A stretch of DNA of 64,000 nucleotides from Marsupella aquatica (taxonomy: Eukaryota > Plantae > Marchantiophyta). The stretch's first letter is position 1, and each line of letters opens with the position of its first letter. Where the stretch lies: positions 1,612,001 to 1,676,000 of the forward strand of contig OZ316896.1 of NCBI GenBank assembly GCA_973895155.1, read 5' to 3'. The position numbers and the translations under genes were made by a program. This document shows, one piece after another, positions 7,528 to 56,623 of the stretch. A model generated the notes under the pieces. It worked only from the letters and a program-made list of their open reading frames with translations, was not told the origin of the DNA and ran no database searches.

Positions 7528-10500
7528 TACTGTTAGTTGGTACTCATTATATTAATGTTTTAATATATTGCTACTATAAGGTCCCTTCTGAATGTTTGTT
7601 TTGTGCGGGGTTTTGTGGTGGGGTTTAGGCAGGGGTTTGGGTCTGGTTTGGGTGGGGTTTTCCAGGTTTTCAGGTTTTGGTCCTGACAACTTTGCTTCAA
7701 GGTTAATGGGGGTCCGGGCGGGGGGTATTAGAGTGGTGGCAGGAGTGTGAGGCGACGGATGAGATTGACTCTCCATCATATCGTGCACCGATCGTGCGAT
7801 GACGATAAGGCTAGGGAGAGGGCCAATGTGTTTGAATAGGATTAGGGCGCAGGCTCCTTGTCCCTCTCCCCCCTCCCCGCCCTCCCCGCGTCCCTCCTGG
7901 CATTCCGTGGAGGCCTCATTCCTTGGTTCATTCCTCACTCGGTCCCCTGCTTGCTACCGATTGAGCTCGCTTCCCGGCTCGCTTCGACCTTTTCTCATTG
8001 TTTTTGCAATCTTGCTGCAGCAGTGATCGCATTCACCATCCCCGCCGCCATCACTTGTTTCTGGTCTCTGTCATCGCTGGAGCTTCGCACATTGCTGCCA
8101 TCGCCTTCAGCAGATGTGCTTGCCACCTCCGCCATCACTAGAGCTTTGTTCATTGCCGCCATCGCCTTCACGGGCGCCTTCAGCAGCTGTGCTCGCCGCC
8201 TCCGCTTCAGCTCGGGCTTCAACTCTATGACCGGGTCTACGACTCACTCGATTGACAGGGCCGAGGATAGGGCTTGTTGTTTTGATGTTCTTTGGTCGTT
8301 TGCCATTGCCTGCGCTCACTGTCTCTTGGACCCGATTCCCGACTGTCTTTGCTTGTCATCTCCGCTCCCGTCTCCGCTGCTGTGGTGACACTTTTTGTGA
8401 CTCTTGGCCCAACTCTTGGTGACCATTTTTTTGCTTCAAGGTTTTCTTGGTGCATTCGCAGTTTGGTTTCTTGGTGCTTTCTTTTGAACGGGCTTTTGAA
8501 CTTTTAACTCTAAATGCTTCCATTTCTCGCAGTTGTTGTTGCCAAGGCTTAAGCACATACATATTGTCAATGTTGCTGACAGTTTAGATAGGGTTAGAGT
8601 TGTGTGCATTGCGATGGCTTCTGGTGCCTCCCTGCGTCCCTCGTGGCGTTCTATGTCGGGGTCATGCCTCGGCTCATTTCGATGATGGTCCCCCGCTTGC
8701 TCCCGGGCTTGCTGTCATCCGCGTTCTTCTCTCTTTGTTCCAAGTTCTTTTTGCAATCTTGTTGCAGTGATCGCATCTGCCATCCGTGTCGCCATTGCTT
8801 GTCCATGGTCTCCGCCATTGCTGAAGCTCGGGCTAGAGCTCCACTCGTCGCCGCCATCGTCTTTAGCAGCTGTGCTTGTCGCCATTGCTTTATCAAAGCC
8901 TCTGGTTGTTGTCATTTATCGCCTTTAGCACCTATGCTCATTGCCATCATCAGTCTGGTTACTTTGTCCCATGTTTGTCAAATTTGATCCTTCCATTTTG
9001 CAATTGTGGTGACAATGCGTGGGGATTTTTGGGTGCAGGTTTGAGATGGGGTTTATTGCTTTCATACACGGAACCAGTGCTGGAAGGCCTGCTGGAAGGG
9101 CGAGGGGTACAAGCAACAGCAAGCGACCAAGTGCAGGCATTCGGATCAACTAATAGGTGATTTTCTCCTCTTCCCTTCCTGACTTCCTTTCTTTAGTCTC
9201 TCCATGTAGAATGCAATGAGTTCTTTCAGACAGTATCTTGCCATTTAATGATTGACTATTTGTGGTGCTTTCAGGGTTTATGTCCATTGCGAGGACAGTG
9301 CATTGTTGACCAGAGACAAATTTTGGGTTTGCGTTGTGGTCCAAGCCTGGTGGTCAGTTGTTGGTGGGCTCACTTCCCCACCCATTGCGAGAAAGCTGGA
9401 GGTCTCCAGTTCATGTGGGAGGTAAAGAATTCCCTCTCGCACTTCTCTCTCCCCCAGATAAAATGCTATGAGTTGTCATTGTGTGCTGCCATCTTAGGTT
9501 CTCTTCTGTGACAATCCTTGCTACTGTCATCTGTGTAGGTAAAATCTAGTCAATGACAACTCGCAAGCATTGGTGACAGTTTTTGGGCATTTGGGGTGCA
9601 GGACCAAGCTTTGGCAATCCGTTTGCTCTAAAGGTGAAGGAGCAACAGTGGAAGGTCCAAAGTTTAGCCGCTAGGTAACTATTCCTCTCCTATCCTCTTT
9701 CTTCAATTTCTCATCGGAGATCAAATGTTGTGATTTATTGTGATGAGAGGTAGCCATCATAGTTGACAGTTTGTTGTGCTTTGAACATTTAGCTACAATT
9801 TTCACCTCATTATTTATGGTTCCATTTATTTTGTATGCACCTATAGGTAACACTCGTTGTTGATTTGAAGACCGTCAATACTTCTGAGAAGCTAGACGGG
9901 ACATCAAAGAAGCGACATTGACTGGACGTTCATTCTAGGTGTGGGTCTCAATTTTGGCAGTCTATTGGTGGAGGGGCCAGAGTGACAGAGCAAGTGGAAG
10001 TGGGGAGTTCAGCTTTGCGGTAACATGTCCTTCCCTTTCTTTTGTTTGTGAAGTGCAAATTGTGACCAGTTTTATTGCAGCTTGTATCTCCTTGTGTGAA
10101 AGTGTCTTTTGTATCTGGAGGTAACACTTGATGTTGATTTGACGAACGTGGTCAGTTCAGACAAGTTAGACGGGACGTCAAAGAAGGTCGAGAAGGTTGG
10201 TGGATGGGCCATAGTGGCAGCAAGTGGGCGTGCGGAGCTCAGCTTTGCGGTAACATTTCCTCTCCCCTTTTCGTCTATGAAGTTAAATTGCTAATCCGTT
10301 TCATCTGCCCTTATTTGTAGATGACAGTATTTTGTGCTTTCAGGTTTCCTCTCCATTTTCACACTCCTCCTTTCACTAACACATATAATCCTGTCAGTTT
10401 GTGTTGACGGCAACTCAAGACAGCGGCAGCTGCACCACTTCAAAGGGCAACAGGAGGAGGTACCAGGCCAGGGTTACTTCAGGTAACCATCACCATTCTT

Positions 10501-11230
10501 CACAGACGCTATCCTTCCCTCTTTGGTGACATGTTTTTGTGTTTCAGGGTTTCCTTTCTGTTTTGACAAGTCTCCCAATGTTTTACCTGCGCAGATACTG
10601 TTACTTTGCTACGAGCAATCTCATAATCAGCGCGGGAATCTACAACAAGGGCGACACTCAAAAGGGCGTTAGGGCGACAACAACTGTTACATATGAAAGT
10701 TTACCTTTCCGGTGAGCACTCCCGTACCCATTTTTTAATTGCTGGAGCGCTGGACATGAAATGCTTTGAGTTCATTGTGATAGGATGTAGCCGTCTTGGT
10801 GCTAGTTTGTTTTTCTTTAATTGAAGGGTTTCTCTTGTTGTTTAATGTCCCATGTTTTTGTTTACGCAGGTAACACTCGATGTTGATTTGAAGAACACTC
10901 GATGTTGATTTGAAGAACACTCGATGGTGAATTGAAGAACGTGGTGACTTCTGAGAAGTTAGACAGGATCAATATCAAAGAAGGTCAAGACTGAAAAGGT
11001 AAAGTAACACAAGAAGCTCACCATATGGATATCACCTAACTTGGAACTTTTACAGTCCCTCACAATGTACGCTAGTTGTGTGCTATTTTGCCTTATTGTT
11101 AGCCGGGTTCTTTACATTGAATTTGACAGATTTCCTTCTGTTTGAAGGTGACGGACTTCAGCTTGAAGGTCACCGCGGGATCAAGCACCTTTTGTTTTGT
11201 GCACAAGGTGAGACTCAGGCTACTGCAGCC

Positions 11231-11638
11231 ATGGTGTCAACCCGCTCTCGGACTTTGGCCGCCCTCCAAGCTAAGGCACTCAGATTGAAAGAGAAATTGG
11301 AATATATGGGCATTCTAAAAGGACCCATTCTATGTTTGTTTGGCTGTGTACCTCCTCGTTTGTTGACTAGGCGCACTCTTTGGAGTAAGAGGGTCAACCC
11401 GACAGCAATTTTGTTCTTCAGATTGGTAGATGGTGTCCAGGGCGAGATGATCACCGGGGGTTGTCTCCATCCCCATTCCCTTAGGTGTTTGGCTTGTGAT
11501 GTGCACCCCGATGCATATATCAAGCATGATTGGGCCTTCAAAGCAAAGCACGCCCAAAAGTTGTGTCGATTGTGGCACACTGACCTGTATGTGAATGGTA
11601 CTGGTATCATTAGTGATACAGCCCCCGCAGAGGCTTAG
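11231..11638 (+). CDS. Possible E1 accessory ORF (135 aa from the ATG), unknown function
   Basis: Open frame MVSTRSR...APAEA with Cys/His residues, downstream of repeated exon-like modules at ~9847, ~10120 and ~10870. No homolog recognised. Confidence 0.3.
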   Translation: MVSTRSRTLAALQAKALRLKEKLEYMGILKGPILCLFGCVPPRLLTRRTLWSKRVNPTAILFFRLVDGVQGEMITGGCLHPHSLRCLACDVHPDAYIKHDWAFKAKHAQKLCRLWHTDLYVNGTGIISDTAPAEA

Positions 11639-12303
11639 GCTCAATTAGTGTACTCCAATCGGATTTTGTATATTTTGGCATGTGATCGACTCAGGATCAA
11701 TTACATTAGTGTCTTGCACAATACTAGACCAGTAGGACTAGGTGGGGTGTAGCGAGCCATCTGGTTTTTATGGAAATGACCCCTAGTAGTCACCTGTCAA
11801 TAGCGTTGTGCTAGTTGGCACCAAACATTTTGTAAACATAATTTATATAACTATACAGTCAGTGAATTTGTATGGAAGTAGCCATCGGTCTCAAGAGTCT
11901 GAGTTTCCGACTCAATGGGAAACGATGATGATGAGAGTGCGGAATTTTGTAAAGCAAAATTTTGACTGTGGCAACATCCGGAAAAGTTCCTATGACCAGT
12001 AGTGCTTGCTCTACTTCAACTTGACAAACTTGGGATGATCTACAGGTGTGGTACGTACTAAGCACCGGAGGTCGGACGGCCAATAGCAAAGACGTGACCA
12101 AAGCTTCACCTACAAAATTCACTGGTACGTTCCGCACCAGTGATTTATTTAGAGTTGAATAGGAAATTATTTAGGGTTGTTTCTTGGTTCTACAGTTATT
12201 TTATCAGGTGGAATGTGCTTTGGCAAACAGGGCTTGTGTTTGTAAAGGTAAAGCATCATTTTGGTTTTGTCATTTCTGCTATAGACATAGGAATTGCTTG
12301 CAG

Positions 12304-12860
12304 GGCCCATCGAATTCAAGGAGACCATTGAGGAAGTGACTGCCTCAATGGAGGCTGCTGGATTTCATCGCTGGCAGTCTAGCGCTCTTTGAAGGAGAAG
12401 CAGGTTGCCTGTGAGGGGGGGGGCTTGGAACTGACACCCAATGGCAATGAGTGCTTAGAGCCATTGAGTCATAGTTGTTGGGTGGTCCTGGTTAGGAGCT
12501 TTGGAATGAATCTGATCCATCCGAGTGTGTCTGTGAGTAAATTGGAGACTGTCCACCATACATGTTGAGGAGATTGATTGGAGTGTAGGGCCTAGCCCCG
12601 ACTGCAGATGGACCAAGCACATAGAGAAGCTACGATCAATGGGACAAGCTTAAACGGGACAAGCTTAAACTGACCATGTGCAGATCCCAATCTCTCTTGT
12701 GCTTACACTGAAACTGGAGTCCATGCATGCAAAGGGTACGACCCTTCCCACCCGAAAGGAGAAAGCTGCAATGGATCTTGAACTTGGCAATGATCACGAG
12801 AAATGGCCGGGATGGGGCAAGGCCCTCGTGGGATTGGTCCAGTGAATGTGGTCTCAACAG
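12304..12860 (+). ncRNA. Conserved structured RNA element (copy 1), probable 5'-UTR exon upstream of the E1 transposase
   Basis: Bounded by ttgcag| and |gtgggc. Shares 10-22-nt invariant blocks and covarying helices with 25315-25823. No conserved ORF. Confidence 0.75.
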
Positions 12861-14858
12861 GTGGGCTGCTTTAGGTTAGTCTTTGTTAGAAACCCCATTT
12901 CTGCCACTCCTAGCTTGCTGGTCTGTCTGAGATGTTTAAATAACTTACTTCGGTGATTTCTAATCGAAATCATCATAGTTTTTGAGTCGACGTTCATGCT
13001 CCTTTTGTCTTCTGAAATGTTTGCAGGCCTGTGGGAGGTGGATGTAGAGTCGTTAGAGTGTTTCACAACATGCCCTCTGCCACTGTATTTCAAGTAGACT
13101 CTGAGTCTGGAGAACGAAAACCGGTGTCCTCATATAGTTATAGGAAAGGGGAAACCTTCGCAGATGCCAGACAGAAGTTGGCGGCTCACTTTGATTTTGA
13201 GTTCCAATTCATAGATGTCAATCTATCTAGTAGGATGCGTGAGTCATGGGAGGTAGTATATTCCTTAGAGGATTGTGGGGGAAAAGTGATCATCATCCCC
13301 AAAAACCCTAGGGATGCTGCAAACTTGCTTGTCCAAAGTAAGGCGGTTATGTCGCAACAAGTCCTTGGAAGCAGCAATGCCTCCAATGGGCCTGATATCA
13401 CAATAAGTGATGATCGTGCTCGGGATCGTGCTGGTTCTCCCATACTGGAAGAACCCCCACTTGAACAGTCAACACCAGACTGTGCTGGCCCATTGGAGGA
13501 AGCCCAAGAGGAAGTTGACCCCCAGGTCACTTTGGGGTCGGAGTTAATGACCAATGAATTAAAGAGGACGTGGTCTTCATGTGTAGAAAAGTTTAAGGAT
13601 CATATGGAGTCAATACAATGCGCTCACCACAAGTGGAGGGTGAAAACCTGGGACAAAGACAATGTGCCATGCAGACACATTGAATGTTGCGAGTGTGACA
13701 CTTGCCATGATGGGTCAGCAAAGGGATTGATGGATAAGACATCCATCAATAATGCCTTCACCAACTTCAAAAAGAAGCATCTGATTTCATCAAAGCATGC
13801 CGCTCGTGTGGCATCTAATAGGGGTGAGAGGCTGCACTCTAAGGAGGTTGCACGGAGGGCTCAAGCAAATACATTGACTGATCGAGCCATACTTCAGTAG
13901 CACCTAAAGATTTTGCAAAAGGTTAATGAGTCTCAGACTGTCGGGAGAGAGACTTTTACAGTTTTAGGTGATGTGGAGAAGGAACCCTTGGAGTTACACA
14001 AATTCAAACTTTTGTGCAATTTATGTTCAGAGCACCTTGTGCTCATTCCAAAACAACGGAATTTGGAGCCCAATCTTGAAAGTCATTGCAATAGCATCAG
14101 TCATCTAAATTATGTTGCAAGGAGTCAAATGCCTGCTAGAGGAGATCCTGTTCTGTCAGGACGGCCTGGAAGACCTCGCCAAGTGGATGCAAGGGATGTC
14201 AAACAAAGGACCATCCAAGGCTTTTTAACTCAAACTGAGGCCGAGTGGAGGGCCGTCTTGCAGTTCCTCTCGAATGTCTGCTGAAGAAGAAAGAGGTGGG
14301 CACTTATCTCTGCTGTGTTGGGGTCTTTGGCGTGATGCGGTCCAATATGGTTCAGAAACCAGGCCTATTAAGGGAATCTTAAACGACCAACTTAAAGTTG
14401 AGGGACTTTGGTTTGCAGAGCCCTTGGTCGTAGAAGATGTGTTCTGTGTAACTGGGCAGGAAACTTATCACATTGAGGGTCTCTTTAGGCACAAGCATTG
14501 CAGTAGATTATCAAAACTTGGGGGTGGCTTTAAAGACTTGACATGTGAACATTGTTTTAGTATAAAAGGGGAACCCGACTTTAGGCTCAGGGTGGCTAGA
14601 GAATTCAAAGCCTCTAAGAAAAGAGGAAGCAGGGGGACTGGGAAGGGTCGTAGGTTAGATTACCTCACGGTTCCCGAGGTCCAGCAACAAGAAAAGTGTT
14701 ATAGGAATCGAGTTCTGAGAGAACGAAAGCTACAGAGAATCCTTAGTCATAGATTACTGATGGCTAAGGCCCGTGTCCCACCCATTGGGGAAGTCTGCCT
14801 TAATTACCAGGAACCAAATAAGGCCACAGTGCTGAAGTTTTGTCAATCCATAGTCTTG

Positions 14859-17800
14859 TGTGACACGGGTAACGTGTCACTTAACCGAACCCAGGTCGTA
14901 GATTAGGTCTTATACGGACGTTAGGACCGTAGCCGTAGCGTAGAATAGCACGTATAGCCGTTTGTTGCCATTATGAATAGATTAGGAGTAGGTTAAGATG
15001 ACCGAATGATTACGAGTTCAGGAAGAGGATTATTACGCGCGACCGAGGTACGGTGGCGGTAGCGGAGTAAAAATCAGTTAGAAGAATCACGCTTGGACCG
15101 AGGCGCCAACTTTAGCTCATTATCAATGACCAAAATGGCCTGGCCTTCTCATGCTCGGGCTCATCCTGGCACCTCCATAAGAGAGGAGCCGATGGCGCTG
15201 CGGGCCATTTGCTCATTTCCACCTTTTTGGAATTCGCGGACATTGCCATCCACTCGCCTTTCCGATCGAATCAAGTTGACCTTTACAAGGAGATTATCGA
15301 GGGATAAGAGCGGAATGTGGCGAGATTTAGTCAGGACGAGCGAGGCCTCCACGAGAAAAAGGACCAATCGAGTGGGAACGTGGACTCAACGAACCGGACT
15401 ACGAGGTTAGTATGACCCTTACAGCCTTGGGATTCTAGACCTTGTTTGGCGAGGTAGGTGCTAAGTTCTCCGAGACTTACTGGTACTCTTGTCCCGAGAA
15501 AGCCGCTTACGAACAAAGATACGCAAAGCTGGTGACCAAGGTAGCACTGGTTAATTGCGAAAGGACAGCCATCACCAGGGATTCCAGCTACAACAAGCTG
15601 TGAGACTACATCATCGAACTATATCTCAGCGAGGAAGGGCTTAGATCAGTAGCAAAGGCGATTCTTGAAGTCCCAACGAAGTTCTTTAAGCTGAAGGGCA
15701 GCCAGCGGCTTACTCAAGCGGAGTTCGACAAGATTCCGGGGTACCTAGACCAGCAGATCGCAGCCGAAAAGCGTCAAGAAGACATCAGCAGACAACGGGA
15801 AGCGGCGCGTAATCTTACGTTCCTCGGGGAAAGCTCCAACGCCTTCAACTGGGATATGGCTACCCCGATACCACCAGTGCCTCAGCCGATGACCACCGGC
15901 ATACCATCGAACCGGTCCCAAGTCCGTCCAATGATCAACACAGTGTTCTTCGGGTTCTGAGCGAGTTAGTCCGCAACTCGAACAGCGTTCTCGTAAGCGG
16001 CCAAGGACAACGACGGCCCCCGAATCAACAACGCGAACCAACGCCGCGCCTACACCTGCCCCGACAAACCCCCCGGCCAACCAGACCCGACGGCCCCCGG
16101 ATAACCCAAAGTCCAACTTATTACAGGTAATCCGCGTCCCCGAAGTAGTCTGGATCGCGATCAAGAAACTCGAACACGCGGACTATCTCAAGGAGCATCA
16201 GTTGGAGCAGTTCGCTCACTTGCTATGGAGGCCGTGCGCCGCCGGGCCGAAGGAGATTTGTGAGTTCATCTCCAATTTCGACACTAACGCATCGACCACC
16301 AAGGTTTTGGGGTAGGCCTTATCACTCACGGAGCATCGGTTAACGCAAATCTTCCGCCTGCCAACCGGGCCGGTGCCGGTTGAACTCCGAATTTGGGATA
16401 AGGAGTATACACCGCGGTACTTCAAACCCGAGGGTAAGACGGACAACGGATACAAGCAGGGGTCATGCACCAACTTAATCTGCATGGAGCGTCTTAACTT
16501 CATACGGACTACCCTACACATGATTGAGCCACGATCCGAGATTTCCCTCTGCATGATCGTGCAGGTGGAACAGTACAAACGGCGGAATTGGGCCCAATTC
16601 TTCTACCAAAGATTCTCGGGGGAGCTGAAGCGGGCTCAGGGTGGTATGGCTATTGGGGGGAAGACTTACTTGGGCAGTCATATTGCCATTATCCTCGCCT
16701 GGTACAAGGCACGGCGGGAGGCCAGAGGAAAGAATTGGCCACCTCAGCCCCAACTAATGTCACCCCCACCCCAGAGGAGGCAACCCCGAGCGCGCGGACT
16801 ACCATCCCTCGGGCAAACCCCGAGCCGGAAGCCCCGACTAATACCCCGCCACCTCCTCCTATGGAAATTCCGCCGCCCCCTTCCGTCGAGCCTCCGCTAC
16901 CCGCAATACAACCACCCCCAATCCCTCCACCACCTGAAGAAACCTTCCCCTCCCTAGCGTAGACTACGGAGGAGCTCGTTGCCCCGCCCGAGGAACCACC
17001 GGTACCCGAGAGGATGGAGGACTACCAGATCCATCGTGACTTCATTAACCAGCTCAACCTGGAGGTAGCGCGACTCCAGACCGAGGCCGATGAAGCTGCA
17101 AACGAGGCGGAGGAGGCGGTGCGGGACAACAAGGCCTTGTAGGACCGCGTTACCTTGCTCGTCCTCCAGCGGGGAAAACCTGGGCCCACCTATGATCAAG
17201 GCGGCTCGAGGTCTCGCCCCGACAAGGGGACCAGCCCTGGTCCAACCACAGCACACACGTAAGGGGTGGTTAGCAAAGGGTGGAAGCAGGCGCCGCGCGA
17301 GGCAGTTAAGTCAGCGGCATCTTTTGGTTAGGTGTAACGACAGAATGGCTGTTATTAGGCACCGATTAGCGGCAGTAGGAAGAATTAGGGCCGGATCAGC
17401 CAACGTAGGATGGAGTCCATCAACGGACTAGATTTTTGTAAGTAGGCTTGGCCGCTGCCATCCCGGTCGGCACCCTTGTCGTCGATGGTCAACCAGTCAG
17501 TGCGGCACGACCAGTAGTCAGAAGGTAGTTAGTCAGTAGGTAGTATCCCGGAAGGTAGTATCCTCCAGTTCTCTTCCGCAAACTGTAGTATTTAGGCTTC
17601 CCCTTCCGCTATGGAAGGGGGACAAGGCTTAGTTATCTCAGCAGAAGAAAGGTGAGGCACGGGGAGTCCCGGCCTGAGCAGGGTCAGAGCGCACCAAGGA
17701 GTGAGAGCCAGAGTCGAGCTTGTTGGGCAAGTGCGAGGCGGGGCCTCATAGAGACTGGGCATCGACTGCCGTTGGGCCTGCTGACCCCCTTTGAAGTCGA

Positions 17801-18234
17801 GTCAACCATGTAAACTGATGCTTCGCTGAGTAAATGTAGTCTTTTCCCTCTAATGTTTCCGCAAGTAACTGGTGTTGTGAGTATGCTTTGTCTGGGCAAA
17901 GGCACCATTTTAAGGGACGTACCGGGTGCGGACTAATGGTAGGGATTGCCACCCATTGTATGTCACAAGGTTCTGTCGCGTCGATGGCTTGAAAAGCCCC
18001 AAGCCGGGAGTTAGTCCGAGTCACTAACTGAGGGAGGATTCCAGCGGTGGAAAATAAAAGATACCTATGACTAGTATGAATTGCTTAAGTTTTATACCAG
18101 TAAGTATATCGGCTTAGCCCGACTTAGGGCTAATCGGGGCCACTACCTCCTTGCCCGAACCCTCACCCCTACTGGTGGTCGAGGTCGCGCCATGGCACTA
18201 AACTGGATTTAAGGCCCAGGTTCGGGACGCGACA
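14859..18234 (+). mobile_element. Solo LTR (family A, 3376 bp) carrying a decayed ORF
   Basis: TGTGAC...GCGACA termini; 5-bp TSD TCTTG at 14854-14858 and 18235-18239. Removal restores IVL-AHKRGAF. No gag/pol and no internal LTR pair seen. Confidence 0.85.
15314..17273 (+). pseudogene. Decayed homolog of the 884-aa LTR-encoded protein; ends approximate
   Basis: ORF 16373-16957 (EGKTDNGY..ERLNF..LHMIEPRSEI..WAQFF..IGGKTYLGSHIAIILAWY) matches the 884-aa ORF (EGSVDNGF..ERLEF..LHMMEPRGEI..WASYF..IGGKAYFASHIEIILEWY). Confidence 0.8.
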
Positions 18235-21200
18235 TCTTGGCACACAAAAGGGGTGCCTTTGGAGGGAGAGGTGCCGTGTGGGATATGTTGTCAGACATAG
18301 CTTCGAACCTAAACAAAGAGAAGCAGGGTTACCGATATAAGGCAGGAACAAAGCTTCTCTGCCAAACACTCTTTTTGCATGGTGGGAGGCGCGTTGTTGA
18401 TTGTCTTTCCAGTAATGGAATAGGTCCTAGTTTGAACACCCTTCAACGAGATAGGAGAGGGATGGCTGTGTTCCGTGCAGGAATTCATGCGTCTCAATTC
18501 AAGTTCATCGCCAAAGTGTACTCACAATTAAAGGATCGACTTGGCATATGTGGACCGATTCCCTGTTTTATGGTAGAGGATGAGACTGTAGTGAAAAAAA
18601 CCGTGAGGTAATTACTATCTCACTTCATAACCTTTGGGTTGATGTACCTACTGTTGTATATTTGAATATGTACACCAAAAAGGCAGCAACCTAAAAAGTC
18701 CTTCACCTTATGTTTGCAGATGGCTGCCAAAACATGATACTCTTATTGGGTTTTGTGGGAAGAGAACTGAAGGCCACCAATGTGTAGCAGGCTTGGAGGT
18801 GAAGGTGGGAAAGGGAGAACCTGGGTTTACTGCCATCGTCGATTCATTTGAGAATTTCCGTGTAGGGAACCTAGCAAGGTGTATCATGGTCAATCCATTA
18901 GTTGTAGGGCTTCCTCACTTGGCTGTAATGGGCGATATAACATGTAATAAGTTTGATGCCCCTTGGGTCAGGCGCCAGTGGGACAAAGTGGAATCTCTCT
19001 GGACAACTCATTGCTTGGAATCGGTGGGCCCTCTATTGGGACATGCCAGTGATGGGGATTCACGAAGGAGAAAGCTTATGTTGGAGGATTATAGTGGGAG
19101 AGGGATTGAGGGGCCAAGGCAAAACCTGGGTTGGGAAGGTTGGCAGCTGACTCACTCGATTACGACTACTGCCCAGGCCTCTGGAGGCTATGCTGTAGGA
19201 CTCCATGATTAGGATTATATCCATAATGGGAAGAAGCTAGTCAACCCACTTGATTCAAGTGCCAGGATTTTGAAACTAGGAGCAGGTGTTGCAACCATAA
19301 GTCACTTGATACACTTAGAGGAGTTATATGAGGTGGCTCAGCATGGCTTGAACAAAGAGGACAAACGTCGCAGAGATCGGCAGAATTGGGCAAGTGCACA
19401 ATGACTTTGTAGTCGTAAAGTCAGTAATTCTTTGCGGCTGCTACGAGACAGAGCAGATGCTAGGGTTGAGCTTACTCTTGGGATAGAGGTGTACATTAGG
19501 ATATGTGCAGATTATTTGGACATTTTTCTTAACACTCGGCTCAGTTTGCGCGAGAGGATTGTTCTCTGTGGGAAGGTGGGATTCTTTTTCAGGCTTTGGC
19601 GTCTGTGGTGTTTTCATGGGAACCGCTCAGTTGGGGGTAACACACACCCTATCACCTTCACCCATAGTTGTATTCCCATGCAGACATTCCTTGACATTCA
19701 AATGTCAGCGCATTTTGTTGTTCTTTTGATAATCCAATTCAGGGACAAATTCCAAGATCTACCTGTACCCTTGCATTTGACTGGGTCAGATTCTTGTGAG
19801 CAGTTTTTTTCCAAAGTTGGGGGCATGAGGGGCAATGAGCGAAGCTATGACATATCAGAATTGGTGGAATGTGCTACTAATCTGAACCGGTTGGCTGCAA
19901 TGGATTTGACCAAAGGAATTATGGGTGTGGGGAAGAGTCATAAAAAACACTCAACCATTTGGATGGGACTGCACCCAATAGAAGCTGGGGTTGATGCAAT
20001 AGCAGATCAAGAAAATTATACAGGAATCGAAACAAATGCAGAGGTTATCATTGCTTTGCAGGATGGGTTGGTATTGGCCCAGAGTATTGCAACTGAGTGT
20101 CAAATGAACCCTTCCACATCGGCCAGGGACAAGGTGTGGTGGACTTCACCTTGGACGACTGAGGCAAAAGGGGCTAAGTATGATGGATGGTGTGATGTGA
20201 ATGTTGAGTCATTAGTTAATGTGGATGAAGGTTTGGATGATGAACCACCACCATTAGTACAGCCTGTTGTCCCAGTGGAACAGACTCTTGAGGAGATTGC
20301 CATGTTTTTAGATCCAGAGGTAGTGGATGTTGGCGCTGCAATTGACGTTACCATGGATGCAATGCATCCTGACTTGGTGTATGGTGCCCCTAGACAGGAG
20401 TTTAAACCAACAGTATCTTACAAAGACAGGAGTATCTACAAAAGTACCCTGGTGAGCCAATTAGTGGGCAACCCACACCTTAGTAAGGACCGTCTCACTC
20501 GAGTGAAGCAGAGTATCTATTTCAACAATTTAGTGGATAAACCAAATGTGCGTGAAGGATCTCCATCCATGTTTATGACAGTTGGAAGTGACTGTGGAGT
20601 ATTTTTTGTTGATGACACTCCTCAGGGTAGAACCACTCAAAATACAGAGGCCATAGCTCGAGCAATGAAAGGGAAGGGGCATGCCAAGAAGTCAACCGAT
20701 TCTAAAAGGCCTAGAGGTGAAGCTATCACAGTGACTTCAGTTACAGGAGTGAAATATAAGTGGTGGATTGGACGAGTCCAAAGCATCCACAGGAAAGATG
20801 GGAACAAGATAGGAAGATCAAGGGAAGCATTGGATTTGCTTGATAGGCCTGGTACTGAATCCCCTGGGCCCCCAACGTTATTAATAATGGACCGGACGTG
20901 CGAACGGCCGAAGGGTACATTTAAATCAATTCCAGATTAATTTTTATAATCGACTTATAACCAACAAGACCATATTTTATATGACAATCTCTTTATAACT
21001 ATTCCAAGGCATCCAAAATGCCGGCCAAAATAATTTGCTTGAAGGGGGCCAGTAATATGGCATACACACGTCATGATGAGATTGGTCCATGTGGCACGCC
21101 CTGAGTGGAGTTTAGTGTAACAAATACTTGTGGTGAATAGGATGAGTTATGAAAGTATTTGGAGTTTTGAGGGTTTAGGGTGAAAGGTTTTTGGGGGTAC

Positions 21201-21239
21201 ATTTCTAGGGGGTTTTGGGTGTTTGCAGGGCAAAAGTTC

Positions 21240-21430
21240 AGGGGGAGTACTCAATCCCAAGGGAATGAGCCCTGGAATGAGTCAAAGGTCCGGGGCAGGG
21301 GGAGTAAACAATCCCCAAGGGAATGAGTCGAAGGCCCGGGGCAGGGGCCGGGAATACTCAATCCCCAAGGGAACGAGTCGAAGGCCCGGGGTCAAAGTGA
21401 GTCCAAGGGAGTGTCAAAGTCGGGGTCGAA
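21240..21430 (+). repeat. Degenerate ~55-bp tandem repeats in the E2 5' region
   Basis: Repeated GGGAGTACTCAATCCC(C)AAGGGAATGAGTCGAAGGCCCGGGG-like units. Confidence 0.7.
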
Positions 21431-24400
21431 GGGAATTAGGGCTCAGCTTCAAGCCGCCGGATTTCACATAGTGCTACCAAGTCGAGAGGTTCGGTTTAGG
21501 CTGAGGGAAGTGGAGCTTGCAGGTTGGCTACGGACCTTGGATGAAGGAAGCTATGGGGCCTAAATGAAATGTTGCGGGTGGAGGCCGACACTTGATGCTT
21601 GCGAAAGTGGCGTTTGACGCAAAGCGGGACGTTGCAAGGCTGGGAGGCGTGCACTGGCGGGACCGACTGTGGGAGGCACACCTTTTTTGGAGTTTTGTTT
21701 AGGGGTAACTTTCCTTACACTGCCCACTGTTTACGTAGAATGATCATACTTTCCATTGTTTATGCATGCATACACTTTACTAACTATGAAAGCTCGTAAC
21801 CTACTACCAGCTATTGCCCGAGCTACCGTCGATCTGTAAGAAGGGTGAGGCGCGGGTTGAGGTGTTGTTGTGGCTATTGTTGATCTGCGCTTAGTGCCGT
21901 TTGTCTGCTGGAAGCCCGGCCAGCGGGAAGCCCAGGCATCTGAAAGAGGTCCGACTCCCTCTGCTCACTATCTTACTCGGCTCACTACCTTACTCCGCAT
22001 AGTACGTGATTTCAAATATTTTGGTATGCACTGCACTTCCCGCTCCACTTTCGACTATGGTCAACTCCTCTTTGTTTTGAAATTGCGGCTCACAGCAGGG
22101 CTGAAATGTTGCAGAAAATGAAAGGTGGTATGCCTTGGGTGTTGTGGGAAGCGACATTGTCTATGTAAGGTTTGCTACTGTTGCTATTGGAGCGCAGCCC
22201 CGAGTATGCGTGCAACTGCAGACGGTGTCTCAAGTTGTCTGTAGGAGGCCCACAAATCCTAGCATGCTGTAATGCAAAAAGGTCCAAATCAGTGTCTTGC
22301 CTTTTCACCACCCTGCACACCCTCTGCTCATTGTCGTTGTCTATGCAATTTAGTTTTTCATTGTATCCTGAAGCTTTACAAGCTTTCATGTTGAGTCTGG
22401 TCGTGGCGTTTTCCCGGGCGTTTTGGCAATCCCATGTTAATTGAATGTTGGGCCCGACTGTATCTGTTGCCGCTGCCGTTTGGAATTTGTTGGATATGGT
22501 GCTCTCTGCTGATTCCCACATTGTCGTGCTCAGTGCTGTCATCTTGTTAATGTGGGCTATGGCTTACTGATCCGTAAGTCTACTCGCAAGCAATCCAGAT
22601 AATTTTATGTTCTAATGTGTGATAGGAAATGTGCTGTCTCCTCTTTCCTCTTTGCTTGACTTATTCCTTCGCTTTTGATCTTGTCCGTGTATCTCAATCT
22701 TGGGCAGCTATTTTCATTTACATAGTGACTGTAAAGCTTTGCTAGTTGCTTACATTGTAATGGTATTTTGCTCTCCATTACAGTTGTTCTTCTGACTTGT
22801 TTGATGGCATTTGACTGTCCAATACAGCGATGAGCCAGCTGCGTTGAGTTCTTTCAATTTGATCAGCTGTTGGGAGAGCGTTCGGGACGTTGAATTTGAG
22901 CTGGTGGCCTCCGAATTGTTGAGATCAGTCAGTCTTGGGTGAAATCCAGTGTTTGCGTGAAAAGGTCCGTGCTCTTTGCTCTTGACGTCTCTGTTTGACT
23001 TGGACCCTCAATTTGTTTCACGGGGATTGCAGCTTTCGTCTTTCATAGAGTCCAAGTCTTTCTCGATTACATTACTGTGTACTTGTAGATGTCTTCCAAT
23101 CGGAGGTACGCTCTGTGTTTCACAGGGATTACAACTTTCGTCTTTCACAGAATCCAAGTCTTTCTCGATTACAAGGCTTCTTGTTTAATGTGGGTGCCAA
23201 TGCCTGTGCAGTTGTAGATGTGTTTGGTTTTCTAAATGCTAATATTTTTTGTGATTGCAGAGTTTTTTGTTTGGGTGAGCGCTGTCCACCTCAAAAGACT
23301 ACAAGCGATTGCAACAATCAGGTCATTTTCAAACTAATCATTTCTTTTGCACAATGTCATAGTGATTTTCAAATCTATTGGTATATCATTTGCTCTTGTT
23401 CAATCAGAGTAGCAAAGCATGGTGAACTCCTATTTGTTGCTCCATCGTGGCCTGCATCGTGGTTAAATTTGTGCTTCAAATGTGTGCAGAAGTTGTCGCT
23501 CTTGCTGTCCGGGCATTTTACTTGTCAAATGTGCGGCTACTGCTGCGGAAGTCCCTGTGGAAGGTGTCTGCCATAGGCCAGTGGAAGGTGTCTGCTTTTG
23601 GGTAGTTTGCCTCTCAGTTCTCCTTTGTGTCCATTGTACTAGTCCAGGAATAATTGTGGGGTAGAAATGTCGTTGTTTGATCGAGAACCACAATTAAGAA
23701 CTTTGGTATATGAGATGGGAAGCGATGGACGTAGCAAAGCTGAGCTGAGCTGAGAGTAGATAGAACAATTTTGCATCACGGCAAAGCGATGAAGAAGATT
23801 GATCATGGCCAATTTTTCCGATCATGGCTCTAGACAACTGACATGATTTTGTCCAATTCTCACATCCGATGACACAAGCAAACCAGTATTACAGAGTAGT
23901 AAGTGGCTTTGCACTGCACAGTGAGTTGTAAAAAGGGAAGTATCGACCAAAACCCCACTCAAAGATTTAGATGAGGTCATGAATGAGGAGTCGAATACAA
24001 AGCTGAGCTGCTGTGCGCGGCTACCCCGGCGCGTTGAGGAGCTGAGGGATTTCTTGTGTTTTGGGGTTTCGTGTTTTGGTTTTTCTTTGTTGAACGAGAT
24101 TCGGCTTGCAGTCTATGCAATCATATGAGGATTTTGGTGGTCCGGTTTGAAGGTGTAACAATTCTGCCATCTCGTTCTCCTTTTTGGCATTGACTTCAAA
24201 CACAGCTTCTGCTGCTTTGCCTACATTCCCCTTCTCCCTTCCCTTGTTTCCCAAGCCAAGATAGTAATTCACGATTGATCGCAGCTCTAATCCTCATTTC
24301 GGTGTCATATTTTGTGTTGCTGGTTTGTTTACTTTATCTTGTTTGTCCGATACCAAGTTGCAGTACACTTGTGAGATTTTCTGTGTGTCCAATAAGACCT

Positions 24401-25314
24401 TTCTCTTAACCCCTCAATCTCAGCCATTCCATCACTCAACTCCTTTAATCTCATCTGGATCGATCCAAGCGAGAGGCATCAATTTCATGCTCCTCTGCTA
24501 CTTCTGCGCCTTGTTCCTGCTCCTTTCACAGCATTTGTAGGGGCAGGGACTAGATGGATTTTGAGCAATTCGAACAAGCAGCGGATTGCATTATTCAAAT
24601 AACCCATTGAAATATCCTATACAGATTGCAATATTAAAAAACCCACTTCATTTGCTCATTGCAATAGTATTGCGTAACTTTATTTTATCACCGAATGTAG
24701 CAATTCTCTTAGTAGGTCATTACTGAAATGCGGGCTGAAATGGTAACAATTTCAATTGCCCATGATAATTGTGTTGCATTACTATAATGAGACGAAATTG
24801 AATTGCTATTTACTTAATGCCTTTTCTCTTTGCTTCTCACTCTTTGTAGGAGGGAGTGATCATTGAGACTGTATTACTTATGCCCCTATGCCCCACCTCC
24901 AAAAGGAAACATGTCCCACACACTGAGTACGTTGTAAGGTAAGATTTGGGGGATCATTGATGTTCCTGTATATGGCAATGCCTTCCTTTTCCTGGCATTA
25001 CCCTTCTAAATAGTCCCACTGCAAACTATTTTTAAAGATATTCCTTAAACTCATTTTTTGTTGTCATTTACACAGATACTCATACACCTCTGAAGTCAGG
25101 AAGGACAGACGCCCCCAAGTGTTGGGTTCCACCATCACAAGGTATCCAATCAATTTTGCATTTTGTACTATTTCCTTCTGGATTACCGTATCTGTAATGT
25201 CTCCACAGACGCTAATTGACAGGCATTGTGTGTTGCTGAGGTAAGTTTTCAGCTTTTCATTTCCAGGTCCTGTTTGCAATTTCCTTCCCTGCTATTGCAA
25301 GTGTTGGTTTGCAG

Positions 25315-25823
25315 GTTCCTCAAGTTCATTGGGACCCTGGGGAACTAATGCCCCCAGAGGAGACTTGCTGGAAGTGATGACCCAGCAGTCTAGCGCCCCT
25401 TGAATGAGAGAACAGGTTGCCTGGGAGGGGGGGGGGGCCTTGGAGTTGATTGCCAATGGCATTCCTGATTAGAGCCCAAAGTGTTAGGATTTGGTTGGTC
25501 CGGGATTGGCAAAGAATCCAAATTCTTGGGGCATTTAGGGTCGATAGGGACTAAGTCCAAGTACACCGTGTTCGAGTGGAGGGAATTGGAGTGTGGGCAA
25601 CCCGACTGTACATGCTAAGCACACATGAGCATGTTACAGATCCCAATCCCTCTAGTGCTTACATTGACATTGGAATCCTTGTCAGCAAAGGGGCCACCCT
25701 TCCCACCCGAGATTTCTCGGAGAAAACTGACTTGGATCTGTAGAAGCCAATCACCAAGAGCAATGGCCGGGATGGGGCAAGGCTCTCTTGGGGGTTGGTC
25801 CAATGGATGTGGTCTCCCAAGCA
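25315..25823 (+). ncRNA. Conserved structured RNA element (copy 2), probable 5'-UTR exon upstream of the E2 transposase
   Basis: Bounded by ttgcag| and |gtgggc. Perfect stems ACATGCT/AGCATGT, TACAGATCC/GGATCTGTA, CATTGGA/TCCAATG and CCAAGAG/CTCTTGG; covaries with copy 1. Confidence 0.78.
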
Positions 25824-25925
25824 GTGGGCTGCTGTAGATGTTCTGTACTAGGGTATTTGATTGGGAAATGCTTGAATGTGACATGTCCATTGTATTTCTT
25901 GCAGGTCTGAATCTGTGATTTTTTC

Positions 25926-28900
25926 ATGCCGCCTGTGCCTGTATTTCTCGTTGACCATGAGTCAGGGACCAGAAAACACTCTGGGACCATTAGTTGTCTC
26001 CCTGGATGGACCTTGGCGGATGCTAGGCAGAAAATGGTGGATTTGGAACTTTGGGACTTTGATTTTGATTTTATTGATAGCGTGGGAGGTTGTAGATTGC
26101 GTGCTGCTTGGGAAAAAGGCAACCTCATTGATGATTGTGATGGAAAGATTGTCATCATCCCAAAAATACAGTCTCTGCCCATCCAGAAAGTGGGGGTAGA
26201 TGTTGGAAGCAGCAATGCCTCCAATGCTGAGGCTCTGAGTAAGAGCGTTAGTGACGGAGAGTGGCACACTGAAGTTAGGGTAGAACCTGAGATACAGTGG
26301 GGACAACAGGACTTGCCTCTACCTGTTTCACCCCCAACTTCACCTCTCCCTAATGTACCTGTGGATGATGATCCACATGTGAGTTTCCAGTCAACAACTA
26401 TGTCAAATGATCTGGCCAAGCTCTGGGTGTCCAGTGTTGACAAGTTGAAGGAGCATATGGTCTTCATAAAGTGTGAGGACCACAAGTGGAGCGTCAAAAC
26501 TTGGGACAATGGTGGTGTTCCATGTGGTAAGATAGAGTGTTGCGAGTGCAACACTAATATATCTGGATCATCTAAGTATGTTATGGATAGGGTGTCTGTC
26601 ACTAATTGTTTCACAAATTTCAAACAGAAGCATTTGATCACCCCAAAGCATGCCAAAAATGTGGCACATAATAGGGGGCAGAGAGTAGACTCTGTTGAGA
26701 TCAGTCGAAGGGCTGCAGCTTCCTCCTTGAACGATCGTGCAACTCTTGACATGCATGTTCAGATAGTTGAAAGGCTCAATGAATCTGAGCCTGTGTCCAA
26801 ACCTACCTTCTACATTGTAGGTGATGTTCAGAAGGAGCCTGTGGAGAAGTTAGAGCGGTTCAGAGTGGGGTGCCATTTTTGCTCTGACGTGTTCACTTTG
26901 GTACCCAAGCAACGTAATCTGGAGGTTAATCTGAAATCCCATTGCATCTCTGCAAATCATCTATCAGCAGTGGCTAGGAGTTTGAAGCCACCACCTGGTG
27001 CACCAATACTGTCAGGAAGGTCAGGCAGACCTCCCAAGGATGATAAGAGGGATGTTCGCCAAAGAACCATTAATGGGTTCTTAACCCGGCAGGCCAGAGA
27101 TATTGCTTCCAGCAGCCGGTCAGGAGGGACAGCTGGAGGGAGTGGTTCAGGAGGGAGTGGTTACAGTGGAGGTTCAGGCCATTCAGGGGATGTGACAGGA
27201 GATCCAGGTAAACCCCACCCTTGGTCATTGTTGTGTTGGGGATTGTGGCGGAACTCAGTTCAATATGGTGCAGTAATCAGGCCTATCAAGGATATCCTAT
27301 TAGATCAGCCAAAGGTTGATGGAGCATGGTACGCAGAGTCAGGGGTAAAGGCAGAGGTGTGGTGTCTTTTAGGCCAAGAATCTTGTTTGATAGAAGGACT
27401 GTTCAGGCACGTGAACTGTAGTAGAGCATCACGGCTTCTTGGTGGTTTTCAAGATCTGACTTGTGAAGAATGTTACAGTATTGCAAGGATGGGTGACTTC
27501 CGATTAAGAGCCTTTAGAGAGGACATTGCAGTAGAGAAAAGAGGTACTCGAGGAACCGGTAAGGGTAGACGGTTGGCATATCTCACAATTCCTGAGATTC
27601 AAGAACAAGCCAAAACTTACAAGAGAAACATTTCGTCTCTCAGAAAATGTCTCAGAGCTCAGCAACACCGCCTGTGCATGCTGGGGGCCCGAGTCCCCAC
27701 TTTGAGAGATCTTTGCAAAGAGTCTGGAAGTAGGAAAGACATGTACAAGTTTTGCAATGACATAGTCTTGGCTCACCAGCGTGGTGCATTTGGTGGGAGA
27801 GAGGCCCTATGGGACTTGTTGCGAGATGTAGCTGCAAATCTTAATAGGAAGAAAGAAGGAAACACCTTTCGGCCTGGCACTAAACTTCTTTCCCAGATAT
27901 TGTTCCAACAAGGTGGCAGGCGTGTGGTGGACTGCTTGCAAAGTAATGCATTAGGCCCTAGTCTGAACACCCTTCAACGGGACAGGAGAGCCATGGCTGT
28001 ATTTAGGCCTGGTTTGCATGCTGACCAGTTCAAGTTTGTTGCTGCTGTATACTCTCAACTAAAGCAGAGGATGGGGATCACAGGTCCCGTGCCATGCTAT
28101 TTGGCAGAAGATGAGACCTGTCTTAAGCGGACAGTCAGGTGATTTCATTCCCCTGGACAACATCCTACAGTCTGTAGTAAATTTTTGGCTGTTATCCCTC
28201 TCCTCAATAGGTCTGTGGTTGACCACTATTGTGGATGGCTGTGTTGCAGATGGCAACCAAAACATGACACCTTATTGGGGTTTTGTGGGTTGAAAGAGGA
28301 TCACCAGTGTGTGGTTGGCTTGACAATAAAGGTTGGAGCAAGAGAGGAGGGTTTCAGCAAAATCACTGATACCTTTGAGAATTACAAAATTGGAAACCAG
28401 GCCAGATGTATAGTAGTAAATCCTCTTGCAGAAAGATTTCCTAAATTTTGCATGGTAGCCATGAGTACATGCGGTAAGTTTACTGCAGATTTTGTCAATC
28501 AACAATGGAAGTCCACAGACACTTTGTGGGCTAAATATTGTCTAGACTCAGTTGGTCCTCTCTTGGGTCATGCTAGTGATGGAGATGCACAAAGGAGAAA
28601 GCTGATGCTAGAAGACTACACTGGTCAAAGCTCATATCAAGGGCAAAGACAGAATTTGAGATGGGAAGGTTGGCTATTGAGCCACTCATTCACTACCAAT
28701 GGACGTCATACACATGCTGTTGGTTTACATGATCAGGATTACATTCATAATGGAAAGAAGTTAATAAACCCACTTGATTCTGCTGCCAGAACTTTGAAGC
28801 TGGGAACAGAGGTGGCTGGAATCAGTAACTTGGACACTCTCCAACGTTTATATAGCAACTTGGATCATGGGTTGAACAAAGGTGATGTTACACGGAATGA

Positions 28901-30659
28901 TAGACAGAATTGGGCCAGTGCACAACGATTATGTAGTAGAAAAGTTGTGAAGGCACTAAGAATGCTTCGTGAAAGGAAAGATGCAAGAGTTGAGCGAACT
29001 CTGGGGACTGAGATGTATCTCACAATATGTGGTGATTACTTGGATATCTTTATGAATCCTTGTCTCACCTTGAGAGAGCGGGTTGTTCTCTGTGCCAAAG
29101 TTAGTTTCTTTTTTCGCCTTTGGCGATTATGGTGTTTTCATGGAAATCATAGTGTTGGAGGTAACACGACAGCAATCAATTTTACTGTGAGTTGTGTCCC
29201 TATGCAGACATTTCTTGATATTCAGATGTCTGTGCACTTTGTGGTACTTCTAATTATCCAATTCAGGGATAATTTCAGACATTTGCCAAATGTGCCATTG
29301 CATTTGACAGGATCTGATGCATGTGAACAGTTTTTCTCCAAAGTAGGAGGAATGAAAGGGAATGAGCGTAGTTATGATTTCTCTGAGTTGATTGACTGTG
29401 CAACATCGTTGAATAGGTTGGCTGCAATGGATCTCAGCAAAGGGATCAGAGGGGCTGGAAAAAGTCACAAGAAGCATTGCAATATTTGGATAAAATTGCA
29501 TCCAATACCGGTACAAGTTGGTACTTCTGTTAATCCTGTAGACTACACAGGTATTGAAACCAATGAGGAAGTTGTGGTAGCTCTGAAAGAAGGGTTACTT
29601 TTAGCCCAGACTGTAGGAATCGAGTTGCAGATGAATCCATCTACATCTTGTAGGGATAAAGTATGGTGGGAATCACCTTGGATTACTGAAAAAAAAGGGT
29701 CCAAGTTTGGAGGATGGTGTGATGTTAAGGTGGAGGATCTTGCACCTGTTGATAGTGATGATGAAGAATCAGGCGGGGAGATCAGGCAAATTGCAGCTAA
29801 TGTAACTATCCCAACACTTCCAACTGATATGGCAATGGCAGAAAGTAGTGAGATCATTGAAGATAGTGAAAGGCCAAGCATTGCAATAGTAGGGGATCAT
29901 TGTTCAGCTGTTATGTCTGAAATGCATTCAGACTTGGTGTATGGACAACCTGTTCTTGACATCAGACCAACTGTGAGTTTTGATGGTCGGACTATATACA
30001 AGAGCACATTGGTAAGCCAACTAGTTGGTAACCCCAATGTAAGTAAAGATCGTTTGACTAGAGTGAAACAGAGCTTGTACTTCAACAATTTAGTTGATGC
30101 ACCCAAAGATCGAGCAGGAGCAGTCACCATGTTCATGACTGTGGGTAGTGATTGTGGAGTTCTCTTTGCTGATACAACAGTACAGACTCGGGCCACAAGA
30201 GCCACTGAGGCTATACAAAAAGCCATGAAAGGGAAAAGAGCAAGGAAAGAATGTGGGACAACAAATGGATCTTCTGCTCCCAATCCAAAAAAGCCAAGGG
30301 GAGAACCTGTGAACGTTACCACAGTACCTGATACCCTTAAGTACACTTGGTGGATAGGGAGGGTACAATGCATCCAACGAAAATATCAGGGTCGGGTGAT
30401 GGGTAGAACAAGACAATCAGTGGATTTACTTGATAGGCCTGGCGGTGAAGAAGCTGTAAGAGTTCGTTTTGAATGGTTTTCAAGGATTGGAAATAGTAAG
30501 CACAGATTTGCTTACAATGTTTGTGATCCTCAGTGGATCGATTTGGATTGTGTGATATCAAACGTGACACTATCAGTGAATCCCACAACTCCAAATGTTT
30601 TTCATTTGCATCCCGCTGATGCAAATTTGCTGGATGATTTTGCTAAAGCCCATAAGTGA
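25926..30659 (+). CDS. ~1540-aa P-element-superfamily-like DDE transposase, join(25926..28138,28250..30659)
   Basis: GT-AG intron 28139-28249 joins the 738-aa and 824-aa ORFs in frame. Motifs LAEDET (D1), ASDGD (D2), QDYIHNGKKLIN, DRQNWASAQRLCS and GSDACEQFFS (E) parallel the P-transposase motifs FDEM, CDQG, DxxHLxKxxRN, KMxVxxAxQ and QDxLENFF. Confidence 0.85.
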
Positions 30660-56595: not shown

Positions 56596-56623
56596 TTTTC
56601 TCACTATGGGTTTTTCTCACTAT

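Follow-up and report, generated by a model that had tools for sequence, protein, structure and literature searches.

The window, the whole 64,000-nt stretch of DNA that we analysed, contains a PPR gene, a lectin gene and pieces of LTR retrotransposons, a gene content that marks it as plant DNA. It also holds three elements, E1, E2 and E3, all of which (3/3) carry terminal inverted repeats and 8-bp target duplications. Just upstream of the transposase in both E1 and E2 lies a copy of the sequence under study, which we read as a large structured RNA. A third copy was found on L003, a 3,051-bp JGI metagenome contig and the sole locus returned by one exact-match 21-mer scan, which would miss diverged copies. 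The features are given in window coordinates, except for the last.

7295 to 33031, no strand assigned: element E1, with terminal inverted repeats starting CCCTGGGCCC and the 8-bp target duplication GATCGAGA.
11231 to 11638, plus strand: ORF-A, 135 aa, with a zinc-finger-like C-x-H-x5-C-x2-C pattern.
11844 to 11960, plus strand: TATA-like box and short segment, resembling L003 1170-1260 by eye and not detected by blastn.
12304 to 12874, plus strand: structured RNA, E1 copy, a predicted 571-nt exon with acceptor CAG before 12304 and donor GT at 12875.
13070 to 20861, plus strand: E1 transposase, broken into pieces, with E2 and a 3.4-kb insertion (14859-18234) interrupting it.
20862 to 31581, no strand assigned: element E2, nested in the E1 transposase, with the terminal motif of E1 and the 8-bp target duplication ACTGAATC.
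25315 to 25837, plus strand: structured RNA, E2 copy, a predicted exon of 523 nt.
25926 to 30659, plus strand: E2 transposase, two predicted exons (25926-28138 and 28250-30659) with open frames.
33969 to 35043: element E3, short, with ends starting CCCTGGGCCC and an 8-bp target duplication.
1612 to 2135 of L003: structured RNA, L003 copy, a predicted exon of 524 nt.

The modelled fold of the transposase identifies E1 and E2 as P-element-like transposons. In the E2 protein, a DDE core of P-element type is predicted to be joined to a BAH-like domain at the C-terminus. When the model of its second half (pLDDT 74.9) was compared with known folds, the Drosophila P-element transposase matched with Z 19.8 (rmsd 4.2, 325 aligned residues), far above the next family, Transib (Z 8.3), and in Foldseek the P element took the top two rows (probability 1.0, E 3.4e-3). 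The C-terminus is weakly BAH-like (Z up to 6.8). Transposons of the P-element superfamily have 7-8-bp target duplications, terminal inverted repeats and an N-terminal THAP domain. E1 and E2 share the transposase core fold, the 8-bp duplications and the inverted repeats, but differ in having no detected THAP domain, a C-terminal BAH-like domain, ends starting CCCTGGGCCC, a size of 10.7-11.7 kb with multi-exon leaders of about 5 kb each, and the structured RNA. Pfam returned no match for the transposase family, including the N-terminal transposase ORF and its relatives. The named relatives come from the liverworts Calypogeia fissa (44% identity) and Riccia and from the fern Adiantum, which makes a liverwort host likely, and more distant ones have 25-34% identity. 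In one distant relative, P0016 (residues 1-114), the 340 nt upstream of the start translate openly and bear no trace of the RNA, which may therefore be restricted to some members of the family or be situated on the far side of an intron.

Several other features were seen in and around the elements. The insertion at 14859-18234 has TG...CA ends and the 5-bp duplication TCTTG and resembles a solo LTR or retro-derived piece, and the 3' end of the E1 transposase picks up again after 31581. In the E1 leader, 5' of ORF-A, short exon-like units of about 60-90 nt are repeated in three or four copies (9700-11000); 5' of the E2 RNA, three short predicted exons (24850-25241, hand-read) would encode an upstream ORF of about 43 codons. 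Extra ORFs lie in E1 (31932-32522, plus strand, 196 aa, no Pfam match) and in E2 (22090-22542, minus strand, 150 aa). Long inverted repeat pairs of 82-90% identity (33140-33416/35334-35613 and 37286-38068/45603-46408) mark other inserted elements, and an LTR retrotransposon has LTRs at 47083-48240 and 58589-59753 (89% identical) with gag-like and pol ORFs at 51216-56604 on the minus strand.

The original prediction had placed the RNA at 12304-12860 on the strength of seven sequence blocks shared with E2 and a set of candidate helices. All seven blocks are present (E1 12374-12855, E2 25385-25816), the helix arms lie where it had put them, and its 15-bp tandem duplication at 12641-12670 was confirmed, falling in the P7 loop of our model. 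Its start also stands; its end has to be moved, as the unit continues for about 14 nt beyond 12860 to a likely donor at 12874/12875. The flanks, which it had taken to be unalignable, are so downstream (z 0.1 and -0.3), and are weakly alike over the 120 nt upstream (z 3.6-5.5). An acceptor-like CAG stands at the start of the unit in all three copies and an AG/GT at its end in E1 and L003; E2 reads AG/AT at the donor position, a poor donor. The position of the RNA relative to the start codon is the same in E1 and E2, and the RNA is far better conserved than the adjoining leader. Outside it, E1 and L003 have nearly no detectable DNA similarity.

This conservation is not that of a coding exon. No reading frame is conserved, as had been claimed from E1 and E2: stops occur in every plus-strand frame of E1. 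Between the 3' domains of E1 and E2, substitutions by codon position number 17/68, 11/67 and 16/66, with no excess at third positions, in contrast with 120/491, 97/490 and 263/490 for the transposase. Of the 17 indels listed in the RNA, 15 have lengths not divisible by 3. Codon structure thus does not explain the conservation. No translation of the RNA appeared in any of the 87 proteins examined, and frames read by hand revealed no in-frame AUG inside the RNA common to the three copies. The stops, the flat distribution of substitutions and the indel lengths led us to reject a coding exon.

The base-paired structure is real and covaries strongly among the three copies. As a held-out test, the eight helices of the original prediction (40 pairs) were scored in L003, a homolog that had played no part in proposing them, their arms being located there by hand from invariant anchors. 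E1 and L003 differ at 16 letters within these helices; a single pair of the 40 is broken, and seven are changed on both sides and still paired. When 16 changes were scattered with the transition share of the transposase (0.49), the means were 10.65 broken and 0.66 two-sided pairs, and neither observed value was reached in 100,000 shuffles (0/100,000); with 80% transitions, P was 0.0002 for broken pairs, and 0/100,000 shuffles reached the two-sided count. The survival of the predicted helices in L003, conservation that codon structure does not account for and a downstream gene that has a P-element fold support the claim of a large structured RNA upstream of a transposase.

A fuller model of 21 hand-placed helices pairs 288 of 291 cells, with 30 of its 97 pairs varying, 27 of which remain paired in all three copies and 16 of which are two-sided; it was drawn from n = 3 full sequences, with all three copies in view, which makes these counts circular. 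The model has 16 G-U and no A-C cells on the plus strand, which marks the plus strand as the RNA strand. From this asymmetry and the exon-like ends, we infer that the RNA is transcribed and folds as RNA. RNAalifold, applied to the 3' domain alone, gave 10 two-sided pairs of 56. In four pseudoknot or long-range helices (22 pairs), 65 of 66 cells are paired and no two-sided change occurs among the three copies, so that these helices draw on invariance only. The folding energy of E1 is no better than that of shuffles (z +0.53; E2, z -2.5), and the case for structure therefore rests on covariation and not on energy. That there is no functional RNA here, and that the sequence is the decayed remnant of a coding exon, a signal acting at the DNA level or a repeat that moves on its own, appears very improbable. 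The energy of E1, the abundance of stems of at least 5 bp (750-890 per copy), the three full sequences and the hand placement of helices would suit such an explanation, against which stand the lack of codon periodicity, the indel lengths, the held-out covariation, the 16 G-U versus 0 A-C cells and the shared position before the start codon in E1 and E2.

The modelled architecture, in E1 coordinates, is as follows.

12315 to 12441, plus strand: 5' domain, a three-way junction of P1/P1in, P2 (12328/12343) and P3 (12356/12371), with a G-run and hairpin P4.
12442 to 12569, plus strand: middle region, which varies between copies, shows weak similarity (z 4-6) and contains a short motif conserved near 12503.
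12570 to 12709, plus strand: central domain, P5 around hairpin P6 and stem P7, with two-sided changes in P5out, P7a and P7b.
12641 to 12670, plus strand: the 15-bp tandem duplication, located in the loop of P7; loose ends of Logan contigs contain repeats like it.
12713 to 12843, plus strand: 3' domain, in which P8 closes a junction of P9 and P13/P14, with two-sided changes in P8 and P13.
12844 to 12866, plus strand: 3' tail, in which 12850-12855 can pair with 12321-12326, with only one one-sided change.

In the 5' domain, two-sided changes occur in P1in, P2 and P3, and the invariant strand 12405-12410 can pair with 12815-12820, where only a one-sided change is seen. Positions 12551-12555 of the middle region can pair with 12862-12866. 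The P7 loop (12615) and 12582 can each pair within 12699-12709, giving two predicted pseudoknots whose arms are conserved without two-sided changes. In the 3' domain, P9 continues into the hairpins P10 and P11, which are accompanied by a C-rich linker; an invariant G-rich loop (12809-12820), also able to pair within the RNA, caps P13/P14. The 12321/12850 pairing, first described as closing the whole domain, is indeed kept in 3/3 copies; it is not a simple closure, being long-range and in competition with the local stem P1in for the same bases, and P1in is likewise kept in all three.

Two competing pairings, both conserved, are what a switch would require. They favour the main rival to the interpretation developed below, namely a regulated poison (cassette) exon like P5SM: its inclusion would silence the downstream gene through its many AUGs and decay, and a bound protein, be it ORF-A, the transposase or a host factor, would lead to skipping and so turn the gene on. 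Such an exon would also account for a fold that spans acceptor to donor exactly in E1 and L003 and for the in-frame AUG that predicted skipping provides in L003, and P5SM and other plant structured RNAs behave in this way (PMC3378873; PMC12218528). However, the P5SM exon has 175 nt, one third of the present size (PMC3378873), a 550-nt fold is unnecessary for repression, skipping in E1 would expose an out-of-frame upstream AUG, and the E2 donor is poor. We consider a poison exon unlikely, though a serious contender.

The genes on either side of the RNA bear on its role. ORF-A has a homolog upstream of the RNA in L003 (656-1036; 35% identity, E 3e-21). Its family comprises 20 representative matches, of which 19 were aligned, the repetitive look-alike P0080 being left out; the proteins are about 130 aa long, start with MVxTRS and share an invariant C-x-H-x5-C-x2-C. 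ORF-A had no match in Pfam, PDB or Atlas and was not detected in E2; it is a candidate RNA-binding or anti-silencing accessory protein. A TATA-like box follows ORF-A in both E1 and L003, and in E1 the box and the segment after it may be an internal promoter between ORF-A and the RNA; given the two boxes, a single bicistronic transcript is not established.

Downstream, a predicted short intron separates the RNA of E1 and E2 from the start of the transposase. The L003 copy gives way to a predicted 76-nt intron, 5 nt and a 241-aa ORF (ORF-B, 2217-2942) with no similarity to the transposase (hhalign probability 0.4 and 0.1), values that rule it out as a transposase N-terminus. Its single-sequence model is poor (pLDDT 44), and its likeness to AEP-1D primase-like proteins in Atlas language-model features (0.96, of low recognition value) is a lead only. 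Because an unrelated ORF follows the RNA in L003, the RNA is not tied to the transposase; as judged from predicted ORFs, it is reused before at least two unrelated genes. With predicted splicing, and the E2 donor guessed, the last helix lies 13, 30 and 51 nt from the main AUG in the three copies. AUGs inside the RNA number 15, 11 and 12, against 10.2, 8.9 and 9.1 expected from composition, and are thus not depleted.

We then considered variation among contigs from 4 sequencing runs of 2 organisms, aligned at 80% likeness (Logan). Summed depth at 12796-12829, which is contig depth and no copy number, was 1,772 against 36-60 in most flanking bins in run X1 and 64,131 against 221-628 in flanking bins in run X4. 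The 211-nt 3' domain was matched by 62, 75, 81 and 142 contigs across the four runs; so many contigs make many diverged copies likely, and the RNA is probably multi-copy. Among the 40 of 52 variants listed, 16 fall at modelled paired positions: nine still pair with the E1 partner, two (at 12715/12841 and 12716/12840) are matched by a listed variant of the partner and five are without a listed partner. None of these 40 lies in the G-rich loop (12808-12823). At 12607, all aligned contigs read C, completing a pair that is open in E1; this mismatch is consistent with drift in an inactive copy. Raised depth was also seen in 4/4 runs at 12992-13030, just before the transposase exon, a candidate conserved branch/acceptor region, and some contigs join 12992-13030 to the RNA 3' end across different sequence.

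The presence of the 3' domain on 62-142 contigs per run, its conservation above that of the neighbouring leader and the proximity of ORF-A, a potential binder, would fit a trans-acting or scaffold RNA, whether as guide or cofactor for ORF-A or the transposase, as an element for export or stability, or as an anti-silencing decoy. Against this, the transposase has a P-element fold, which is not known to need RNA, and in L003 the RNA precedes an ORF that is not a transposase. Complementarity to the element ends reaches only 7-8 letters, by which a guide acting through such pairing was rejected. We hold a trans-acting role to be improbable.

The RNA matches no catalogued family. Rfam, which the original prediction had named as a check, yielded no match at gathering score in the whole window with Rfam 15; the best E values were 2 (E1) and 0.83 (E2), mostly on the opposite strand. 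GTDB genomes gave 0 matches to the RNA. Pattern scans of IMG/VR returned 2, 0, 7 and 0 loci, all nine chance-like (best nhmmer E 0.015, seed only), and 0 of 43 candidates from a transposase query in IMG/VR were confirmed. Beyond E1 and E2 the window, including E3, holds no further copy, and no RNA run is among the sequencing runs listed as carrying the module. Likenesses to SRP RNA, the HCV IRES and the group I intron P7/J8-7 were rejected, since the elements are not in a matching order and Rfam is unsupportive. Land-plant telomerase RNA carries a telomere template, found in 0/3 copies. A literature search, with most subscription papers and Repbase outside its scope, brought up no apparent description of the RNA or of its host P-element-like family.

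Short invariant single-stranded blocks between covarying stems, several predicted pseudoknots and a place 5' of an ORF would also be expected of a ribozyme of novel fold that, by cleaving or capping the transcript, frees the downstream ORF as its own mRNA, as lariat-capping and retrotransposon 5' ribozymes do. On the other side, the hammerhead core motif is absent in 3/3 copies, catalogued ribozymes and group I/II introns gave no Rfam match at E<=10 (permuted forms would escape), the ends resemble ordinary spliceosomal sites and known self-cleaving RNAs are much smaller than this RNA of about 550 nt. A ribozyme therefore seems rather improbable, and explanations beyond those named here deserve very little credence.

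Our preferred reading, to which we give slightly less than an even chance, is that the RNA is an IRES-like module, the last leader exon, for translating the downstream gene. We favour it because ribosome loading is the simplest purpose for a 550-nt fold kept before an AUG whatever the gene. As the predicted last leader exon, the RNA would be spliced in just 5' of the AUG that opens a transposon-borne gene. It would be compacted by the long-range pairings 12405/12815, 12615/12699, 12582/12706 and 12321/12850, and its invariant single strands (the G-rich loop 12809-12820, the C-rich linker and A-rich bulges) might serve as binding sites for the 40S subunit or for eIF4G/eIF3. Placed at the 3' end of the RNA, the ribosome would scan 13-51 nt to the AUG, and the long multi-exon leader with its upstream ORFs would thereby be bypassed. 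Such a portable cassette would allow a transposase or cargo gene to be translated from leaders impassable to ordinary scanning.

Conserved pairing, a position before the AUG in 3/3 copies, two unrelated downstream ORFs, undepleted AUGs, ORF-A upstream in E1 and L003, and a size close to the roughly 450 nt of type II IRESs (PMC5759354) all support the IRES-like reading. The exon, if included, holds 11-15 AUGs, so a scanning ribosome would meet these within stable structure; in algal nuclear bicistrons using leaky scanning, such AUGs are depleted (PMC11892635). Against this reading, the defining features of the tested IRES classes are lacking, there is no Rfam match, ORF-A is perhaps a separate gene (TATA-like box) and was not detected in E2, the spacing from RNA to AUG varies, the pseudoknot pairs show no two-sided change, and the in-frame AUG after skipping in L003 suits a poison exon. 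Plant IRES claims have, in addition, often been weak, and well-supported ones are scarce (PMC5382211).

We put at even chances the broader proposal of a new class, a large virus-style IRES (or ribozyme) in an early-land-plant nuclear genome, carried as a portable exon by P-element-like transposons and placed before different genes in polycistronic or uORF-laden transcripts. A survey of 130 plant genomes reports 16 structured-RNA candidates with generally modest covariation (PMC12218528); the present RNA has about 550 nt, strong covariation from three copies and apparently many copies, and so lends itself to modelling and experiment. The nuclear bicistrons known so far rely on leaky scanning (PMC11892635). 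If the RNA is an IRES, it would be strongly structured, cell-encoded and native to plants; the existence of structured cellular IRESs could then be tested directly, and plant work might gain a tool for expressing several genes at once. Should it prove to be a switch or ribozyme, a new fold would control a eukaryotic cut-and-paste transposon.

Finally, we compared the RNA with known structured RNAs. In Type IV (HCV-like) IRESs, the IIIe hairpin has a GAYA loop motif; the 12844-12866 tail contains no hairpin, and no GAYA loop is common to the three copies. As these IRESs are described in a survey of viruses, mostly of vertebrates (bioRxiv 10.1101/2025.05.12.653553), our RNA is like them in being a large multi-junction RNA directly 5' of an ORF with predicted pseudoknots, and in having a basal stem that leads into a branched arm and a hairpin with a G-rich apical loop. 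It is unlike them in that neither a IIIe hairpin nor a IIIf pseudoknot follows the basal stem, in having no fixed AUG spacing (13, 30 and 51 nt after predicted splicing, where Type IV has a short fixed distance) and no Rfam match, and in its place within a plant DNA transposon, in a nuclear exon predicted to be spliced. In Type IV, the IIId hairpin has GGG in its apical loop (bioRxiv 10.1101/2025.05.12.653553); the invariant G-rich loop on P14 (12809-12820) may correspond to it, but can also pair intramolecularly.

Type I/II picornavirus IRESs (PMC5759354) resemble the RNA in their 450-600 nt, many internal AUGs and variable start distance (land-and-scan), and differ from it in that our RNA has no shared GNRA loop or long pyrimidine tract and a pseudoknot-rich model. 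GNRA hairpin candidates occur at differing places, with none in all three copies, and no conserved pyrimidine tract was found before the AUG, the longest pyrimidine run being 8 nt and inside the fold. Dicistrovirus IGR IRESs have conserved SL IV and SL V loop motifs and a non-AUG start; one of these motifs is present in 1/3 copies and the other in 0/3.

The PTE, a cap-independent translation enhancer of plant viruses, shares with our RNA a three-way junction that bears two hairpins and a linker rich in C (12732-12759), together with a G-rich stretch, invariant in our RNA, near the junction (PMC10484670); P9/P10/P11 form such a junction, with the invariant C-rich stretch at 12747-12751. In contrast, our G-rich stretch is a separate hairpin loop and not a basal-stem bulge, the RNA lies 5' of an ORF and not in a 3' UTR, and the junction is only part of a larger RNA. 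The P5SM suicide exon of TFIIIA (PMC3378873) and the plant RNAs of the survey (PMC12218528) are likewise structured RNAs filling a land-plant nuclear exon, with splice-site bounds that, predicted from sequence, would apply here for the acceptor in 3/3 copies and the AG/GT donor in 2/3. Unlike P5SM, the present RNA is three times larger, covaries strongly, sits in the 5' leader of transposon genes and has no likeness to 5S rRNA, and Rfam gave no P5SM or 5S rRNA match. The main text of PMC12218528 makes no mention of transposons, liverworts, pseudoknots or IRES, and its supplements may list further motifs. Thus, the RNA appears to resemble viral structured IRESs in position and build, yet on the tested features would fall outside types I, II and IV, IGR, PTE and P5SM, and both its fold and its setting are new.
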